Source: Oceanispirochaeta sp. (GTDB lineage Bacteria; Spirochaetota; Spirochaetia; DSM-2461). Taken from it: a stretch of 64,000 nucleotides of DNA. Under the pieces are notes generated by a model, which was not told the DNA's origin, searched no databases, and was given only the letters and a program-made list of their open reading frames with translations. The stretch covers positions 224,001-288,000 of the forward strand of contig CAXXOA010000001.1 of NCBI GenBank assembly GCA_963666275.2, read 5' to 3'. This document shows, piece by piece, positions 50,897-60,252 of this stretch (positions within the stretch are counted from its first letter, which is position 1; each line of letters starts with the position of its first letter). A program made the translations under genes and the position numbers.

Positions 50897-52273
<1,377 letters not shown>

Positions 52274-52274
52274 T

Positions 52275-52658
52275 ATGATTCTTACATCACTGGAGAAAGC
52301 CTGCCTGGACGGACAGGAAATTCACTCTCCCGGAGGGGGGTGGAAAAGTGTCAGGATGATACTGAAAGATCAGAACATGGGGTTCTCCTTTCATATCACC
52401 ACCATTTTTAAAAATGCGGATTTTTACATGCACTATCAGAACCATCTGGAATCGGTGTATTGTATTTCCGGACGGGGAGAAATTACCGATCTGGAGACAG
52501 GCAGGGTGCATACTATTGAACCGGGAACCCTGTACGCTCTGGATAAACACGATAAACACCGTCTCCATGCTCTGGAAGAGCTGGAGCTGGCATGTGTTTT
52601 CAATCCTCCCCTGACAGGCCGGGAAGTTCACAACAAGGAAGGATCTTATGATATCTGA
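52275..52658 (+). CDS. ectC: L-ectoine synthase
   Basis: MGFSFHITTI, HYQNHLESVYC, YALDKHDKH, CVFNPPLTGREVH. Confidence 0.96.
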   Translation: MILTSLEKACLDGQEIHSPGGGWKSVRMILKDQNMGFSFHITTIFKNADFYMHYQNHLESVYCISGRGEITDLETGRVHTIEPGTLYALDKHDKHRLHALEELELACVFNPPLTGREVHNKEGSYDI

Positions 52659-54117
52659 CAGTAGAAACAGTCACAGCGTAGAGAAAATCGGCGGAACATC
52701 CATGTCTGATTTCAATGCTGTAAAGAATAATATTATACTCAACGACAAGTTTAAAACTGCCCCATATAACAGGATTTTCGTGGTTTCCGCCTATGCGGGG
52801 ATTACCGATGCCCTTCTGGAGCATAAGAAGAGCGGAGACCCCGGTGTGTACGGTTACTTTGCCCGGAGCGATAATTCCAGAGGCTGGGAAGAAGCGCTGA
52901 AGGGTGTGAATCAGCTTTTTGTGGATATAAATCACCGCCTGTTTCAGGATCCCCTTGAGAGAGAAAAGGCTGACCGGTTTATTCTGGACAGGACAGAAAG
53001 CACCCATGAATGTCTGAGAGAACTGGACAACCTCTGCCGTCATGTTCACTTCAATCTGGGAGATCATCTCAGTACCGTCCGGGAGATGCTTGCCAGTCTG
53101 GGAGAAGCTCACAGTGCCTGGAATACCGCCCGTTTACTCCAGCTCCACGGAGTCAATGCCCGGTTTCTGGATCTGACAGGTTGGGAGGACGAGACTAAAA
53201 CACCTCTGGATGACCGGATCCGCCGGGCCTTTGAGGGGGTTGATCTGGAAACGGAACTACCCATCGCCACAGGATACGCCCACAGTGACAGGGGTCTTAT
53301 GGGGACCTTCAACAGGGGCTACAGCGAAATGACTTTCAGCCGGATTGCGGTCCTGACCGGGGCCGCCGAAGCGGTTATTCATAAAGAGTACCATCTCAGC
53401 AGTGCGGACCCCAAAATCGTGGGGGTGGAAAAATCCGTTCCCATCGGGTTTACCAACTACGATGTGGCGGATCATCTGTCCAATCTGGGAATGGAGGCCA
53501 TTCATCCCAAAGCCGCCAAGGGGCTCAGGAAAAACGGGATCTCCCTGAGGATCAAAAATACCTTTGAACCGGAACATCAGGGAACCCTGATCACGCGGGA
53601 TTACTCCTCCACCCGTCCCATGGTTGAAATCATTGCAGGCCGGCGGGATATCTACGCCTTTGAGATTTTTGATCAGGAAATGATCGGCAAGATCAGCCAG
53701 TACGAAACCCGGGTCCTGAATATCATCGAACAGTACCGGGTCTATCAGGTTTCAAAAACCATTAATGCCAATACGATAACCCACTTTCTCAGCGGCAGCC
53801 TCAAAAATCTGGATCGGATCCGGGTTGCTGTGAATGAAATCCTGCCGGCCAGTGAGATCACCCAGAGAAAAGTCGGCCTTGTCTCCATTATCGGTTCGGA
53901 TATGAAAACACCGGGGATCCTGCTGAAAGCCCTCCAGGCTCTCTATGATAATAAAATCAATATAATGGGAGTTCAGCAGAGTACCAGAGAGGTTGAAATT
54001 CAGCTGATCCTTCAGGAGGAGATGGTTGATCAGGCTATCAGAGCTCTCCATGCTTCCCTGATCGAGGTGCATAATCACGGCAAAGCCATCAATCAGTGTG
54101 ATCACAGAGCCTCCTGA
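52648..54117 (+). CDS. ask: Ectoine-associated aspartate kinase (Ask_ect)
   Basis: HSVEKIGGTSMS, VVSAYAGIT, RGYSE, HKEYHLSSADP, MEAIHP; follows ectC. Confidence 0.93.
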   Translation: MISDSRNSHSVEKIGGTSMSDFNAVKNNIILNDKFKTAPYNRIFVVSAYAGITDALLEHKKSGDPGVYGYFARSDNSRGWEEALKGVNQLFVDINHRLFQDPLEREKADRFILDRTESTHECLRELDNLCRHVHFNLGDHLSTVREMLASLGEAHSAWNTARLLQLHGVNARFLDLTGWEDETKTPLDDRIRRAFEGVDLETELPIATGYAHSDRGLMGTFNRGYSEMTFSRIAVLTGAAEAVIHKEYHLSSADPKIVGVEKSVPIGFTNYDVADHLSNLGMEAIHPKAAKGLRKNGISLRIKNTFEPEHQGTLITRDYSSTRPMVEIIAGRRDIYAFEIFDQEMIGKISQYETRVLNIIEQYRVYQVSKTINANTITHFLSGSLKNLDRIRVAVNEILPASEITQRKVGLVSIIGSDMKTPGILLKALQALYDNKINIMGVQQSTREVEIQLILQEEMVDQAIRALHASLIEVHNHGKAINQCDHRAS

Positions 54118-54723: not shown

Positions 54724-57702
54724 GTGTCTGAAAAATTTGAATATCCCGATACATTCCGTCTGATTTCAACAGACGAACTTGAAGAATACAGAGGCAGGGG
54801 CTACCTGTTTGAACATATTGCCACAGGCTGTCAGATCTACCATGTGCATAATGATGACCAGGAGAACCTTTTCTCCTTCAATTTCAGGACTCCTCCGGAG
54901 GACAGCAGCGGGGTGGCTCATATCCTGGAGCATTCAGTGCTCTGCGGATCAAGGAATTTTCCCGTTAAGGACCCCTTTGTTTCCATGATGAAGGGGAGTG
55001 TGAATACATTTCTCAATGCCATGACCTATCCGGATAAAACCCTCTACCCCTCAGCCAGTGTCCTGGAAAAAGACTATTTCAACCTGATGCATGTGTACGG
55101 GGACGCTGTCTTTTTCCCTCTTCTGAAAAAAGAGGTTTTCCGGCAGGAGGGGCATCGTCTGGAACGGGATGACGAGGGCAATCTCCAGAGGGTGGGGATC
55201 GTCTATAACGAGATGAAGGGCAACTACTCCTCACAGGAGAGCATTGCCGCCGAATGGTCCATCCGGTCTCTTTTTCCCGATACCCCTTACGGCGTCGATT
55301 CGGGCGGGGATCCCGAGTTCATCCCCTCACTGACCTATGAAAAATTTCTGGAGTTTCATAAAACCTACTATCATCCCTCGAACTGCCGGATTTTCCTTTA
55401 TGGAGATATCTCCTCTCAGAAAAATCTCTCTTTCCTGGAGGAACACTTCCTTTCTGAATTTACCCGCAGAGAGGTGGATTCGGCGGTTCCGCTTCAGCCG
55501 GATTGGGACGCTCCTGTGGAGATGGAAGCTTCCTGGCCCAGCGGGGAGGACGACAAGTCCGGCGGGATGACCACACTTCTTCTGAACTGGAAAACAATCG
55601 GTCCCGAAGATCCTGTCCGCAGCCTGAGTCTGTCCATTCTGACGGAGATGCTGATGGGCAACAGCGGGGCTCCCCTTCAGAAGGCTCTTCTGGAATCGGA
55701 TCTTGGTGATGATGTCTCCCATGTGAGCGGTATCGATTTTGATCTGAATCAGGCTGCCTTTACCATAGGCATGAGAGGTTCGGATCCGGATAAAAAAGAG
55801 GCCTTCAGAGAACTGGTTTACCGAGTTCTCCGGGAGCTGGCGGACAAGGGATTTCCCGAAGATCTGAAAGAGAGCTGCCTGCGGCTGGTGGAATTCCGCG
55901 CCCGGGAGGTAAAGGGGGGCGGACCCTTCGGTATGCGCCTTCTGAAGAAGGCCCTGAAAGGATGGAACTACGATCATCCCCCTGTGCTGACTATGGAATT
56001 TGCGCCGCATATGGAAACAGTCCGGAAGCTGGCCCGGCAGAAAGGATACTTCGAAGGCCTGCTGAAAGAGCTGATCCTTGACAATCCCCACTGTTCTCTG
56101 GTGGTTGTCAAACCCGATTCCACACTGACCAGAAAGCAGAAAGAGGCCCTGAAACAAGAGCTTGAAGCTCTGGACAGGGCCATGGGAGCGGAAGACAGGG
56201 AGCTTCTTGACAGGGAGAATCAGGCTCTGAGAGTTTTTCAGGAATCGGGAGACACCCCCGAAGCCAGGGAGACCATTCCCTCTCTGGATATCAGTGATAT
56301 CCCCCGGGAGGTGGAAACCATTCCCTGTTCTGTGGAAGAAACCCCTGAAATGACCATTTACAGACAGGAGGTTTTTACCAACGGTATCCTCTATGCGGAC
56401 ATGGCTTTCGACCTGTCCGGACTGGATGAGGCCTATATGCCCTACCTTCCGCTCTTCTGCAAAGCCCTGACCCAGACGGGACTGCCCGGTATCTCCTATG
56501 ATGTGATAACCCGGGAGCTTGCCATGAAAACAGGCGGGTTCGGCGCTTCGGTAGAAGCATCTCACAAGGTGGATTCCTCCCGGGATGATCAGCCGGAAAG
56601 GTATTTTTATGTCCGCCTCAAAATGCTTGAAAATCAGCGTAACGAAGCTCTGGAACTGGCGGGTAAACTGCTTCTCCAGGCGGATTTTGACAATACGGAA
56701 CGTCTCGAGCAGCTCCTGAAAGAGAGCCTGAATGATATGAAAGCCTCGCTGGTTCCCGGCGGGCACTCCTATGTGTCCCTGAGAGCCAACAGCCGCCGTT
56801 CCCGGGCTTCTGCTCTGGATGATCTGTGGTTCGGCATTACCCAGGTGGAATTCCTCTCCCAGTTGAATCAGGCGGATAAAAAGGCTCTGCTTCCGGCTGT
56901 CTCCCGGGTTCTGAAGGGAATCCGTTCCCATGTCATCACTGCCGGAGGAGTCTCTCTGAGTCTGACAATGGATGAAAAATCCATGCCTCTCCACAGCAGC
57001 AGGATTGCGGGGTTCTGGAAAGATCTTCTGCCCGCCTCCGCGGGGGATGTTCCCTTCCCCTCCGGGGATCTGCCGGTTTCTCCGCTGCCTCCCGCTCCCG
57101 AGGAAGGGAGCTTCCAGGAGGGCCTCTCCATCCCCGCTTCCATCGGTTTTGTCGCCGCATCCCTGAAGGGCACCGCCCTGGGAACTCCTGAACATGCCGG
57201 TCAGATCCTGCTGAGTCATCTGATGAAAATCGGTCCACTCTGGGAGAAAATCCGGATGAAGGGAGGCGCCTATGGAGCCTTTTCCTCCCTTTCGGGGCTG
57301 GAAAAGACCTTTACCTTTGCCACCTACAGGGATCCTCATATTGAGGAAACCCTGAAAGCCTTCAGAGAGAGCCTGGAGGAATTCCTTGCTTTTGATGACA
57401 GGGTCGAGCTGGACAAGTCGCTGATTACCGTGATCGGTCGGGAGATGCGGCCCCTTTCTCCCTCGGAAAAAGGGATGATCTCACTGAAACGGCATCTTTA
57501 CGGGATCAGTGATGAGCTGCGGCAGAGGAAACGGGAGCAGCTGATGGCAATGACTCCCCGGGAAATTCAGAAGGCCTCCCGATCACTTCTGGATCTCTGG
57601 GAGAACGCTGTGATCGAGGTTATGGCTCATCCGGATCGTCTTGATTCGGCTGCAGAGCAGTGGCCCGGTTTAAAAGACCGCCGGATCGAGCTGCCCCAGT
57701 AA
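54724..57702 (+). CDS. M16C family peptidase (insulinase / presequence protease-like)
   Basis: Inverted zincin HILEH, FLNAMTYPDKTLYP, VYNEMKG, IRMKGGAYG, YRDP; GTG start after AAGGAG. Confidence 0.93.
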   Translation: MSEKFEYPDTFRLISTDELEEYRGRGYLFEHIATGCQIYHVHNDDQENLFSFNFRTPPEDSSGVAHILEHSVLCGSRNFPVKDPFVSMMKGSVNTFLNAMTYPDKTLYPSASVLEKDYFNLMHVYGDAVFFPLLKKEVFRQEGHRLERDDEGNLQRVGIVYNEMKGNYSSQESIAAEWSIRSLFPDTPYGVDSGGDPEFIPSLTYEKFLEFHKTYYHPSNCRIFLYGDISSQKNLSFLEEHFLSEFTRREVDSAVPLQPDWDAPVEMEASWPSGEDDKSGGMTTLLLNWKTIGPEDPVRSLSLSILTEMLMGNSGAPLQKALLESDLGDDVSHVSGIDFDLNQAAFTIGMRGSDPDKKEAFRELVYRVLRELADKGFPEDLKESCLRLVEFRAREVKGGGPFGMRLLKKALKGWNYDHPPVLTMEFAPHMETVRKLARQKGYFEGLLKELILDNPHCSLVVVKPDSTLTRKQKEALKQELEALDRAMGAEDRELLDRENQALRVFQESGDTPEARETIPSLDISDIPREVETIPCSVEETPEMTIYRQEVFTNGILYADMAFDLSGLDEAYMPYLPLFCKALTQTGLPGISYDVITRELAMKTGGFGASVEASHKVDSSRDDQPERYFYVRLKMLENQRNEALELAGKLLLQADFDNTERLEQLLKESLNDMKASLVPGGHSYVSLRANSRRSRASALDDLWFGITQVEFLSQLNQADKKALLPAVSRVLKGIRSHVITAGGVSLSLTMDEKSMPLHSSRIAGFWKDLLPASAGDVPFPSGDLPVSPLPPAPEEGSFQEGLSIPASIGFVAASLKGTALGTPEHAGQILLSHLMKIGPLWEKIRMKGGAYGAFSSLSGLEKTFTFATYRDPHIEETLKAFRESLEEFLAFDDRVELDKSLITVIGREMRPLSPSEKGMISLKRHLYGISDELRQRKREQLMAMTPREIQKASRSLLDLWENAVIEVMAHPDRLDSAAEQWPGLKDRRIELPQ

Positions 57703-58909
57703 TTCTGCTTTTGAGTATAAGAGGAAGCAGAACGGCCTGAAATCCCAGGACAGGAAGGAATATGAGGAATGTTCTCAGATTATCCTGTCTGAGGGAGGGC
57801 AGGAAATTCACCGCGGAAGTGAAAAGCAGGACCCCCAGCTGGATCTGCCAGAACCGGATCATCACTTTTTTGCGTTTCTGCTGATCCGCCCGGGGGTAGA
57901 GGAATATAAAAAGCAGATAAAGAGGATGGATCAGGAAGGCATTGATATTCTCATGGGCTACCAGATGGTTGGAGAAGAAGGCCAGGAAGTAGAGAAGACA
58001 TCCCGCCAGTCCCAGCGCCAGAAACAGCGTTTTCAGTACAAACCGGCTGAATCGTCTTAGATGGCGGGTGGAGGTAAGGGATCCGGTTTGCAGGAGCAGC
58101 AGGACAAATCCTGCAATCAGGCCGAGCAGAAGGGCCTGATTGCTGTTGGTCGGGGCTCTTTCCGGTATGGACTGGCGGCCTTCCGCCTTTATTCGGTATT
58201 CCGTATTCAGTACAAGGGGCTGTGTCCCTTCCGGGGTACTTATCTGCAGATAGGAGACCTGTTTCATCAGTTCATCCGGCAGGAACATGGTATCCCACTC
58301 GGTAATATCCCTGTCTATGCTCCGGCCCTGGAGAAAAGAAAGGAGCCAGTCTCCCCAGAAACTGTGGCTGCTGTAGCGGCGGAAGCTCTCTCTGAAACTG
58401 GTCACCCCTGAGATCTCTGTGGCTTCCCGGAGCTGCCCGTCTACGGCTTCATCTATGAGATCCCGGATTCTGGTGGAACAGTTGTCCAGATAGTGATGAT
58501 AGAGGTAGGTGTTGTTCCCCGGCTGAACCTTCCACTGCAGATACTCTGCCATAGCGGCAATCTTTTCATCACTCAGATTCAGGGTCTGAATCGTCACATC
58601 CCTGTTCTCCCGGACGATATAGTTCATATAGGCTCTGGCTGATACCCCTACGGAAGAGTATACAAGCCGTCCCATGGCAAAGTTGCGGTAGAAATGGTCC
58701 GCTTCAAATGAGAAATTTCCGAAATCATAGAAAACCGCCCGGCCGGTTTGAGTATTTTCCAGGATCAGCCCCGTATGGCCGAACCAGACGTACAGGGGAT
58801 CTCCCGGACCGACCGTAACAAGGGAACAGTTCCAGATCTTTTCCTCTGAAGAACCAAAGGCTGGAAAGAGAAGTAAAATCATAAAGAGAGCCAACAGCAG
58901 TTTTTTCAC
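57620..58909 (-). CDS. DUF4105 / Lnb-like (lipoprotein N-acyltransferase-like) membrane protein
   Basis: Signal peptide, GPGDPLYVWFGH, YDFGNF, YLYHHYLDNCSTRIRD, FLPDEL and C-terminal TM helices. Confidence 0.8.
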   Translation of the reverse strand: MKKLLLALFMILLLFPAFGSSEEKIWNCSLVTVGPGDPLYVWFGHTGLILENTQTGRAVFYDFGNFSFEADHFYRNFAMGRLVYSSVGVSARAYMNYIVRENRDVTIQTLNLSDEKIAAMAEYLQWKVQPGNNTYLYHHYLDNCSTRIRDLIDEAVDGQLREATEISGVTSFRESFRRYSSHSFWGDWLLSFLQGRSIDRDITEWDTMFLPDELMKQVSYLQISTPEGTQPLVLNTEYRIKAEGRQSIPERAPTNSNQALLLGLIAGFVLLLLQTGSLTSTRHLRRFSRFVLKTLFLALGLAGCLLYFLAFFSNHLVAHENINAFLIHPLYLLFIFLYPRADQQKRKKVMIRFWQIQLGVLLFTSAVNFLPSLRQDNLRTFLIFLPVLGFQAVLLPLILKSRITGAARSGGLLNRATALQPNQDDPDEP

Positions 58910-59063
58910 CGGAAAAAGTACCTCCAGGTATCAAATCGGAAAAGTTTCAGGATAATATTAATTGATGAGGGTTAATTTTTCTACCCTATTGATTTTTTCT
59001 ATTTATCTCTGGTAAAGATTTATGTTAGAATAAGCCTCAATAAAAAGGCATAAGGAGCAATTT

Positions 59064-59249
59064 ATGGCTGAAAAAGAAACCCTGGTAGTATCTTCCAAGG
59101 TTAAGAATTACATCAAAACCACTGGAGATCTGAAATGTTCTGCTAAAGTTATTGATGTTCTTTCTGACAAGATCCGCGAAATGTGTGACGCTGCTGTCGA
59201 AAATGCAAAGAATGATAAAAGGAAAACCGTACAGGAAAAGGATTTCTAA
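59064..59249 (+). CDS. Bacterial histone-fold protein (short alpha3 type, Leptospira HLp / face-to-face-like)
   Basis: 61 aa MAEKETLVVSSKVKNYIK...LSDKIREMCDAAVENAKNDKRKTVQEKDF with the RKTVxxxD histone-fold signature; SD AAGGAG; own terminator. Confidence 0.85.
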   Translation: MAEKETLVVSSKVKNYIKTTGDLKCSAKVIDVLSDKIREMCDAAVENAKNDKRKTVQEKDF

Positions 59250-59278
59250 TTTGCATTAGAAGCTGTAAAAAATGTATC

Positions 59279-59312
59279 AGGCCGCCCTTGTTGTAAAGGG
59301 TGGCTTTTTTTT
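59279..59312 (+). terminator. Rho-independent terminator after the histone gene
   Basis: AGGCCGCCCTT ... AAGGGTGGCTT followed by a T-run. Confidence 0.8.
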
Positions 59313-59761
59313 GCCCTGATTATTACAGCTTCGGGAGATATGAGCGCGATTGCCTCTCCATATATTAAAATTGTAATTCATCTTTTTCTAGTTCAATTCT
59401 ACATCATCCTAATAAATCATTTATTTCTTACCTTTGAAGTACTGTTGTATTTCTGCAAGTTAATTTTTTTATGAATAGGAATCAAACATACAATGAGAAA
59501 TACAGAATCCCCTCTTCCAGAATGGAACATTGGGATTATTCCTCTCCGGCAGCCTACTTTATAACCATATGCACTAATAACCGTTCCCATTTTATGGGGC
59601 AGGTCTGCAAGAGGAAAATGCAATTGTCTGAGATCGGAAAAATGGCCTATAACAATTGGAAGAATATACCTCAACAGTTTCCCGTTATTGTACTCGATGA
59701 ATTTATCATAATGCCGGATCATATCCATGGTATAATCCGCATCCCCCACCCAAAAAACAGG

Positions 59762-59878
59762 AATGGTAAAACCTCTGGTGATGGTAAAACACAGGGTGAT
59801 GGTAATAAACAGGGTGATGGTAATAAACAGGGTGATGGTAATAAACAGGGTGATGGTAATAAACAGGGTGATGGTAAA
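59762..59878 (+). repeat. In-frame 18-bp tandem repeat (GATGGTAATAAACAGGGT) encoding DGNKQG
   Basis: Four identical units (59798-59869), two degenerate units before them and a half unit after. Confidence 0.95.
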
Positions 59879-59901
59879 GACGCGATTAATCGCGTCTCTA
59901 C
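59874..59901. repeat. GTAG-family REP palindrome inside the RAYT CDS
   Basis: GTAAAGACGCGATTAATCGCGTCTCTAC; 28-bp palindrome with one mismatch. Confidence 0.85.
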
Positions 59902-60206
59902 GGTGGATCAAACCAATACGGATGCAACCTGTCTCTCTGTAACGGCAATTATAAAACCTGTGGATGGACATATCGCTAATACCGGAACTGGTGGTGTAAC
60001 CGGTTCGTATAATCCAATGATAAATCAGAATATTTCCAGGATTATCAGATGGTACAAGGGCAGGACTACATTTGAATGCCGAAAAATCAATAAAAACTTC
60101 GGCTGGCAGGAACGCTATTATGACCACATAGTCAGATCAGATATATCCCTATACAGGATCAGGCAGTATATCAGAAACAACCCGGCAAAATGGCTATCAT
60201 AATCAA

Positions 60207-60252
60207 TATATCCGGGTAGGGACGCGAATAATCGCGTCTCTATCCGGATATA
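60207..60252. repeat. Second REP palindrome with extended arms just after the RAYT stop
   Basis: TATATCCGG-GTAGGGACGCGAATAATCGCGTCTCTAT-CCGGATATA. Confidence 0.85.

Follow-up and report, generated by a model that had tools for sequence, protein, structure and literature searches.

Known bacterial histones and the histone gene of the window

Histones are rare in bacteria and are reported from 1.86% of 18,343 genomes (PMC10627809). Histone HBb (Bd0055) of Bdellovibrio bacteriovorus (PDB 8FVX, 8CMP, 9EZZ and 9F0E) typifies the 'bacterial dimer' alpha3 histones. It is described as an abundant and essential protein that is dimeric in solution, binds DNA non-specifically and bends it (PMC11390915, PMC11317129). 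The mode of binding is disputed between two HBb papers, which propose DNA bending and end-on coating, respectively. HLp of Leptospira perolatii (PDB 9QT0–9QT2) and LA_2458 of L. interrogans represent the face-to-face histones. Residues R49 and N53 of HLp build a tetramer, which is reported to wrap about 60 bp of DNA (Hu 2025; PMC12701072). According to Schwab 2024, Arg48 and Asn52 (HMM positions, equivalent to R49 and N53 of HLp) are conserved in face-to-face histones, whose RxT motif is free of lysine; bacterial dimers, a subfamily defined by clustering, lack Arg48/Asn52 and carry RKT (PMC11390915).

The window, i.e., the whole 64,000-nucleotide stretch of Oceanispirochaeta sp. DNA analysed here, contains a gene for an alpha3-truncated histone of the HBb/Bd0055 'bacterial dimer' type at positions 59064–59249 of the forward strand. 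The open reading frame runs from ATG to TAA and encodes 61 amino acids; all segments quoted in the earlier note are present in its translation. The histone has a single match in this genome, with no paralogue. A genome scan with patterns derived from the window's own histone gave 95 confirmed stretches, from which 80 loci were kept; together with the window's own locus, the set comprises 81 loci and 76 distinct proteins. The stand-alone layout, with its own Shine–Dalgarno sequence, start and stop, is the same across these loci, so no domain of the ZZ, Rab or phage histone kind is added. All 125 candidates of a protein search with the histone were homologues. In comparisons with 11 close relatives, pN/pS was 0.012–0.156 (pS 0.40–0.88, pN 0.007–0.095). 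The low ratios and the homology of all candidates argue against a chance reading frame, and such values indicate strong purifying selection on the gene.

The signals around the gene bore out the earlier description of a strong Shine–Dalgarno sequence, an AT-rich upstream region and a terminator of its own. The Shine–Dalgarno sequence AAGGAG (59052–59057, forward strand) lies 6 nt 5′ of the ATG and is invariant in seven of seven close relatives; 79 of the 81 loci have an AGGA/GGAG-type motif no more than 20 nt from the start. The 154-nt intergenic gap (58910–59063) has a GC-content of 30.5%, compared with 47.8% for the window. It harbors a predicted sigma70-type extended −10 element, TG-n-TAGAAT (59023–59031, forward strand), in which TG (59023–59024) and TAGAAT (59026–59031) are invariant in all seven aligned close relatives. 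The pattern TGnTAnnnT was found 15–90 nt upstream in 29/81 loci, versus 7.9 ± 2.7 in shuffles. A simple consensus promoter scan of the histone region gave no sites, hence the promoter is proposed from comparison with relatives. The intrinsic terminator (59279–59312, forward strand) consists of a GC-rich 11-pair stem (59279–59306) and a T run to 59312. The consensus hairpin of seven close relatives has 12 pairs, three of them with two-sided compensatory changes, and terminator-like sites lie within 100 nt past the stop in 31 of 78 loci, compared with 5 of 297 control windows.

The upstream neighbor, a putative Lnb-like lipoprotein N-acyltransferase gene (57620–58909, reverse strand), matches Pfam Lnb_N and 5TMH_Lnb; its NCBIfam NF051878 score of 189.9 bits is below the cut-off of 550. 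As this gene runs in the opposite direction and the next forward-strand gene starts 222 nt past the histone stop, beyond the terminator, the transcript is soundly predicted to be monocistronic, as had been supposed. A homologue of the Lnb-like gene is the divergent upstream neighbor in 17/81 loci. No conserved operon was found among the 81 loci, the commonest neighbor families occurring in 17, 14, 12 and 12 of them. RNA data containing the histone stretch are not listed. Two contig sets of one sample span it with no listed difference; the sample may be the source of this genome, so they do not count as independent support.

Several other features of the window were noted. The reading frame at 59471–60202 (forward strand) resembles a REP-associated tyrosine transposase, with a match to Pfam Y1_Tnp and an NF047646 score of 46.7 bits, below the cut-off of 80. 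Its neighbors are the histone terminator on one side and a molybdopterin oxidoreductase gene on the other. In loci L002 and L003, the first reading frame of at least 80 aa after the histone is that of the oxidoreductase, so the transposase-like frame seems to have been inserted. Three other matches to its N-terminal 95 aa exist in the genome, and its middle contains an in-frame 18-bp tandem repeat (59777–59878; 5.7 copies, 96% matches) encoding a GDG-containing hexapeptide repeat. A 23-bp near-palindrome lies within the same frame (59877–59899), with a second copy near 60215, just past its stop. The near-palindrome occurs in the genome at 16 places with up to two mismatches and at 23 with up to three, some of them clustered, and at none in 20 shuffled controls; we take it to be of a REP family. 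Elsewhere in the window, a putative aminotransferase gene, a short cupin-like frame and an aspartokinase-like frame stand in a row (50912–54117, forward strand), an arrangement reminiscent of an ectoine synthesis cluster.

Histone fold, subfamily and cysteines

The earlier note had called the protein a stand-alone, short-alpha3 bacterial histone of a non-Leptospira spirochaete and suggested profile and structure searches, which agree with that description. Pfam PF00808 matches the 61-aa protein with 23.2 bits, above the cut-off of 21.4. At E 0.001 the same profile matches 43 of 52 aligned members; under-detection of the homologues by Pfam was considered and set aside, since most are detectable. 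A phmmer search against solved structures returned Bdellovibrio HBb as the best match (E 1.6 × 10−11, gap-free over residues 5–60), followed by Leptospira HLp (E 4.4 × 10−9) and then HTkC (E 0.002). The AlphaFold2 model (pLDDT 83.7, pTM 0.59) contains helices at residues 8–21 and 27–50 and a single three-residue turn at 58–60. Alpha3 is thus modelled as three helical residues in a chain that ends at residue 61, within the 3–4 residues that characterize alpha3-truncated histones. Alpha2 is also shortened, in line with the four to five residues by which alpha3-truncated histones fall short of nucleosomal ones in this helix: 51 residues align to 55 of the archaeal histone 9QV5 and 50 to 54 positions of NF043032, and the alignment with HBb is gap-free. 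By sequence and model, the protein is classed as an alpha3-truncated histone.

Foldseek ranked HBb structures in all of the first five places (TM 0.75–0.79, rmsd 1.7–2.6), followed by HLp and HTkC. The top match was 8FVX (TM 0.79, rmsd 1.7), with 54% identity; HLp shares 40–41%. In VIA-align, HLp (Z 7.1) and HBb (Z 6.9, rmsd 1.9, 57 aligned residues) were tied, at Z values below 8, which are weak alone. As the structural aligner ties the two, the subtype call rests on the sequence. The archaeal HMfA/HMfB-type histones share the histone fold and the RKT...D residues with the window histone. Unlike these nucleosomal histones, it scores only 26.8 bits with NF043032 (cut-off 50), is about four residues shorter within the aligned part, has an alpha3 of one turn (three residues) instead of ten residues and contains no histidine.

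Dimer and tetramer prediction had also been suggested. A prediction with four copies reached a complex score of 0.83, compared with 0.00 for the best of three controls, with contact agreement between runs of at least 87% and a partner pLDDT of at least 85. The predicted contacts, alpha1–alpha2′ and L1–L2′, are those of a histone dimer. Of 30 solved pairs, 20 attain the mark for this score, as does 1 of 23 single chains. With its four copies and custom alignment the job departed from the calibration, and a solved HBb dimer already exists, so the result indicates likeness to a histone dimer, not binding. Confident contacts were listed between two copies only; the residues not named are merely uncertain and hence give no evidence against a tetramer.

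Residues diagnostic of the subfamilies point to the HBb type. R53, K54, T55 and D60 are each present in all 81 loci, forming the RxTxxxxD motif (RD clamp), and the auxiliary clamp aspartate of HBb (D49) is kept as D51. Ten DNA-contact residues are named for HBb (PMC11317129); in the phmmer alignment, seven are identical here, and S, K and K take the places of T8, N22 and R57, respectively. The alpha1 lysines K12 and K14 are invariant among the 52 aligned proteins, and K18 is present in at least 90% of them. With respect to clustering, the nearest solved sequence in pairwise comparison is HBb, both by E-value and by identity. Apart from the gap-free alignment and the clamp with its extra aspartate, the two proteins have in common an alpha1 S-K motif, the short alpha2, the one-turn alpha3, a cysteine in alpha2 and the lack of the face-to-face Arg/Asn pair. 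Unlike HBb, the window histone has Lys at the positions of Asn22 and Arg57, Ser at that of Thr8 and an additional cysteine in L1 (C25 for T23), and it comes from another phylum. The absence of the tetramer Arg and Asn, together with RKTxxxxD and the equivalents of the HBb DNA-contact residues, assigns the window histone, on sequence grounds, to the HBb-type 'bacterial dimer' histones and not to the Leptospira type.

The best-surviving alternative is that the protein behaves like HLp or HTkC, as a toroidal, face-to-face homotetramer wrapping about 60 bp of DNA. Its N-terminus closely resembles that of HLp, a likeness that misled the earlier note into taking the protein as most like the Leptospira type; HLp is also the second-best solved match, the monomer folds are tied in VIA-align, and face-to-face histones are reported within the phylum Spirochaetota (PMC11390915). 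HLp shares with it the phylum, the truncated fold and the RD clamp as well. However, HBb is closer by both E-value and identity, and the equivalents of HLp R49 and N53 are N47 and D51, a difference by which the Leptospira-type assignment was rejected. Across the 81 loci, Arg is found at the first tetramer position in one and Asn at the second in none, and the L2 lysine, absent from face-to-face histones, is present in every locus. A tetramer of the HLp kind is accordingly considered very unlikely.

The HBb-type histone of the window contains two cysteines, which had been suggested, speculatively, to allow redox control. In the corresponding alternative, a disulfide or another modification of Cys25, flanked by K24 and S26 (both DNA-contact residues), and of Cys41 would tune DNA binding in a thiol-regulated Spirochaetia histone. 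Cys25 is kept in 75 of the 81 loci and Cys41 in 77, and no locus lacks both. Position 25 is Thr in three loci labelled non-spirochaete, in HBb and in HLp, so Cys25 looks clade-specific. The value of 75/81 is, however, inflated by search patterns derived from the window's own histone, and in alignment A1 Cys25 is kept in only 70–90%. Each cysteine is lost singly, Cys25 to Thr (four loci) or Val (two) and Cys41 to Leu (three) or Val (one); HBb has the Cys41 equivalent without Cys25; and in the predicted dimer Cys41 touches V13, Y16, I17 and L33 of the partner chain. As the replacements are hydrophobic or small residues, a packing role seems more likely than a redox pair. The reducing cytoplasm disfavours disulfides in any case, and thiol regulation is judged very unlikely.

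Distribution and descent

The earlier note had also suggested a survey of Spirochaetia, and the gene proved to be a constant feature of one part of the class. It was found in every genome of the genus (10/10) and of the family (28/28), but in only 81 of the 401 sampled for the class. With this query it was not found in the other 320, including those of the large families f13 (0/49) and f24 (0/37); spirochaetes therefore do not generally need the histone. The nearest named records belong to a Spirochaetaceae bacterium (98%) and Oceanispirochaeta sp. (97%), with neighboring genes in common with the window, and NCBI places Oceanispirochaeta in Spirochaetia. Named carriers of the gene are Thiospirochaeta perfilievii and Entomospira nematocerorum.

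In 14 genomes, histone distance correlated with ribosomal-protein distance (Spearman 0.80, permutation p 0.0002; kin are not independent), which fits mostly vertical inheritance. Of the 17 genomes in family f16, G209 alone carries the gene. Its histone lies at a distance of 0.16 from the present family, versus 0.29 for ribosomal proteins; a transfer is possible in this case. Genome G151 has two histone matches. None of 249 pattern matches in viral contigs was confirmed as a histone. A profile search of cluster representatives returned 1285 unnamed matches, many of them longer or with two folds. The best profile matches (P0121–P0144, six of them Pfam-scanned) are mostly proteins of 98–274 aa with two matched histone folds, i.e., a tandem HBb-like arrangement.

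Part of this distribution is already in print. Spirochaetia is a class that Schwab 2024 gives as one of the main hosts of bacterial dimers (PMC11390915), and no spirochaete name was matched in the three searchable files of its supplement. Hu 2024 names Spirochaetia and reports the DNA-contact residues as conserved in Spirochaetota homologues (PMC11317129). Table S1 of Hocher 2023 holds at least nine singlets labelled Spirochaeta, Spirochaetaceae or Spirochaetae, found by homology search only; the passages of that paper covered here do not discuss the clade (PMC10627809). The same table includes OQY32390.1 of Spirochaetaceae bacterium 4572_59, a 61-aa protein identical to the window histone at 60 of 61 positions (K49 to T). 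The family, its distribution at class level and a near-identical orthologue have thus been published, and the novelty suggested earlier for its role in this lineage was overstated. No experimental study of a Spirochaetia histone was found in the literature covered, which is mostly openly accessible.

Abundance, relation to HU/IHF and proposed role

The histone gene has a codon score of 0.102, practically equal to the median of ribosomal proteins (0.103). Of 3331 random gene windows, 58 score at least as high, as do 23 of 3331 whole genes. The GC3 of the histone and of ribosomal proteins is 0.356, against a background of 0.516; low GC3 alone can mimic the codon signal, hence the score is an expression proxy partly confounded by GC3. 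Among 14 carriers, the histone score exceeded that of the best HU/IHF gene in ten, with a reversal in genome G002 (HU/IHF gene 1.21, histone 0.36). The signal was clear, with z above 3 (3.2–4.4), in only five of 14 histone-bearing genomes, all with strong codon bias. Purifying selection, the conserved extended −10 element and the ribosomal-protein-like codons together suggest that the histone is probably abundant. The protein had been described as Lys-rich; it does contain 11 Lys among 61 residues (and 2 Arg), but these are offset by 11 acidic residues, for a net charge of only +2 and a pI of 8.6.

The genome has four HU/IHF-family matches, and an HU/IHF-family gene is present in all 26 genomes tested (13 with the histone and 13 without). 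In this it differs from HLp-bearing Leptospira species, which are reported to lack HU (PMC12701072). Replacement of HU by the histone was at first suggested by the background scores of the four HU/IHF reading frames and was rejected, as these frames proved to be fusions or to extend too far. When only the matched domain was scored (0 = background, about 1 = ribosomal proteins), the best HU/IHF gene of this genome reached 0.40 and the histone 1.06. The best HU/IHF score had a median of about 0.58 among the 14 genomes bearing the histone and of 0.62 among the 13 lacking it (31 domains, with weaker and fused matches left out), so HU/IHF codon scores do not differ between the two groups. Strong canonical HU matches (E ≤ 10−29) occur in none of the 81 histone-bearing and in 24 of the 320 other genomes. 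No replacement can be read from these counts, since the 24 fall in six families and 296 of the 320 histone-lacking genomes are also without such a match. The histone coexists with HU/IHF-family genes and there is no sign that it replaces them. There is about an even chance that it is the main chromatin protein of this spirochaete family, more abundant than the HU/IHF-family protein.

Two of the four HU/IHF matches are fusions. A 426-aa frame (G000:C1:131207-132755, reverse strand) combines an HU domain at its N-terminus with an apparent membrane segment and adjoins a short HU gene; a 287-aa frame (G000:C2:120378-121241, reverse strand) carries a C-terminal HU/IHF domain. Several relatives also have long open frames of this kind.

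A narrower job, as a gene-specific regulator or partner subunit with a histone fold, would suit the four HU/IHF matches, the low net charge and the lack of the histone in most sampled members of the class, but it is highly improbable given the absence of an extra domain, of a paralogue for a heterodimer and of a conserved operon or target neighbor past family-level synteny, the ribosomal-protein-like codons and conservation, and the genome-wide binding without sequence preference reported for HBb (PMC11317129).

The most probable reading overall, held with good confidence, is that of a housekeeping gene on the chromosome, passed on vertically and encoding a DNA-bending nucleoid histone of the HBb type. 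To the gene, fold match, residue equivalences, conservation and distribution established here directly, this reading adds a presumed dimer state, DNA binding, bending and abundance, carried over from HBb. The gene would be transcribed alone from the sigma70-type promoter and translated efficiently. Two chains are predicted to form a head-to-tail homodimer via crossed alpha2 helices. By analogy with HBb, the dimer would bind the DNA backbone without sequence preference, through the N-terminal alpha1 patch S10-S11-K12-x-K14...K18 and the paired L1/L2 loops (K24, S26, K54, T55 and K59), with L2 held by the R53–D60 clamp and D51. As an abundant nucleoid protein, it would then bend and compact the chromosome beside the HU/IHF-family proteins. 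The dispute over bending and coating by HBb carries the same doubt over to the window histone. Histone-based chromatin in this organism, as proposed earlier, is plausible by this analogy. A joint reading, in which the histone is the main chromatin protein above HU/IHF and chromosome compaction is tuned by in vivo modification of Cys25, a residue that HBb and HLp lack, is highly improbable; if true, it would represent a chemically switched bacterial histone.

Bench work on bacterial histones has so far mainly concerned Bdellovibrio and Leptospira. The family studied here would be a further lineage in which an HBb-type histone acts as a core gene (28/28 family genomes sampled), and a single phylum would hold two different histone subfamilies. 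This significance is not tied to the window's own copy, given what is already in print. With the named carriers, both the dispute over bending and coating and the division of labour with HU/IHF may be tested in a second HBb-type system.
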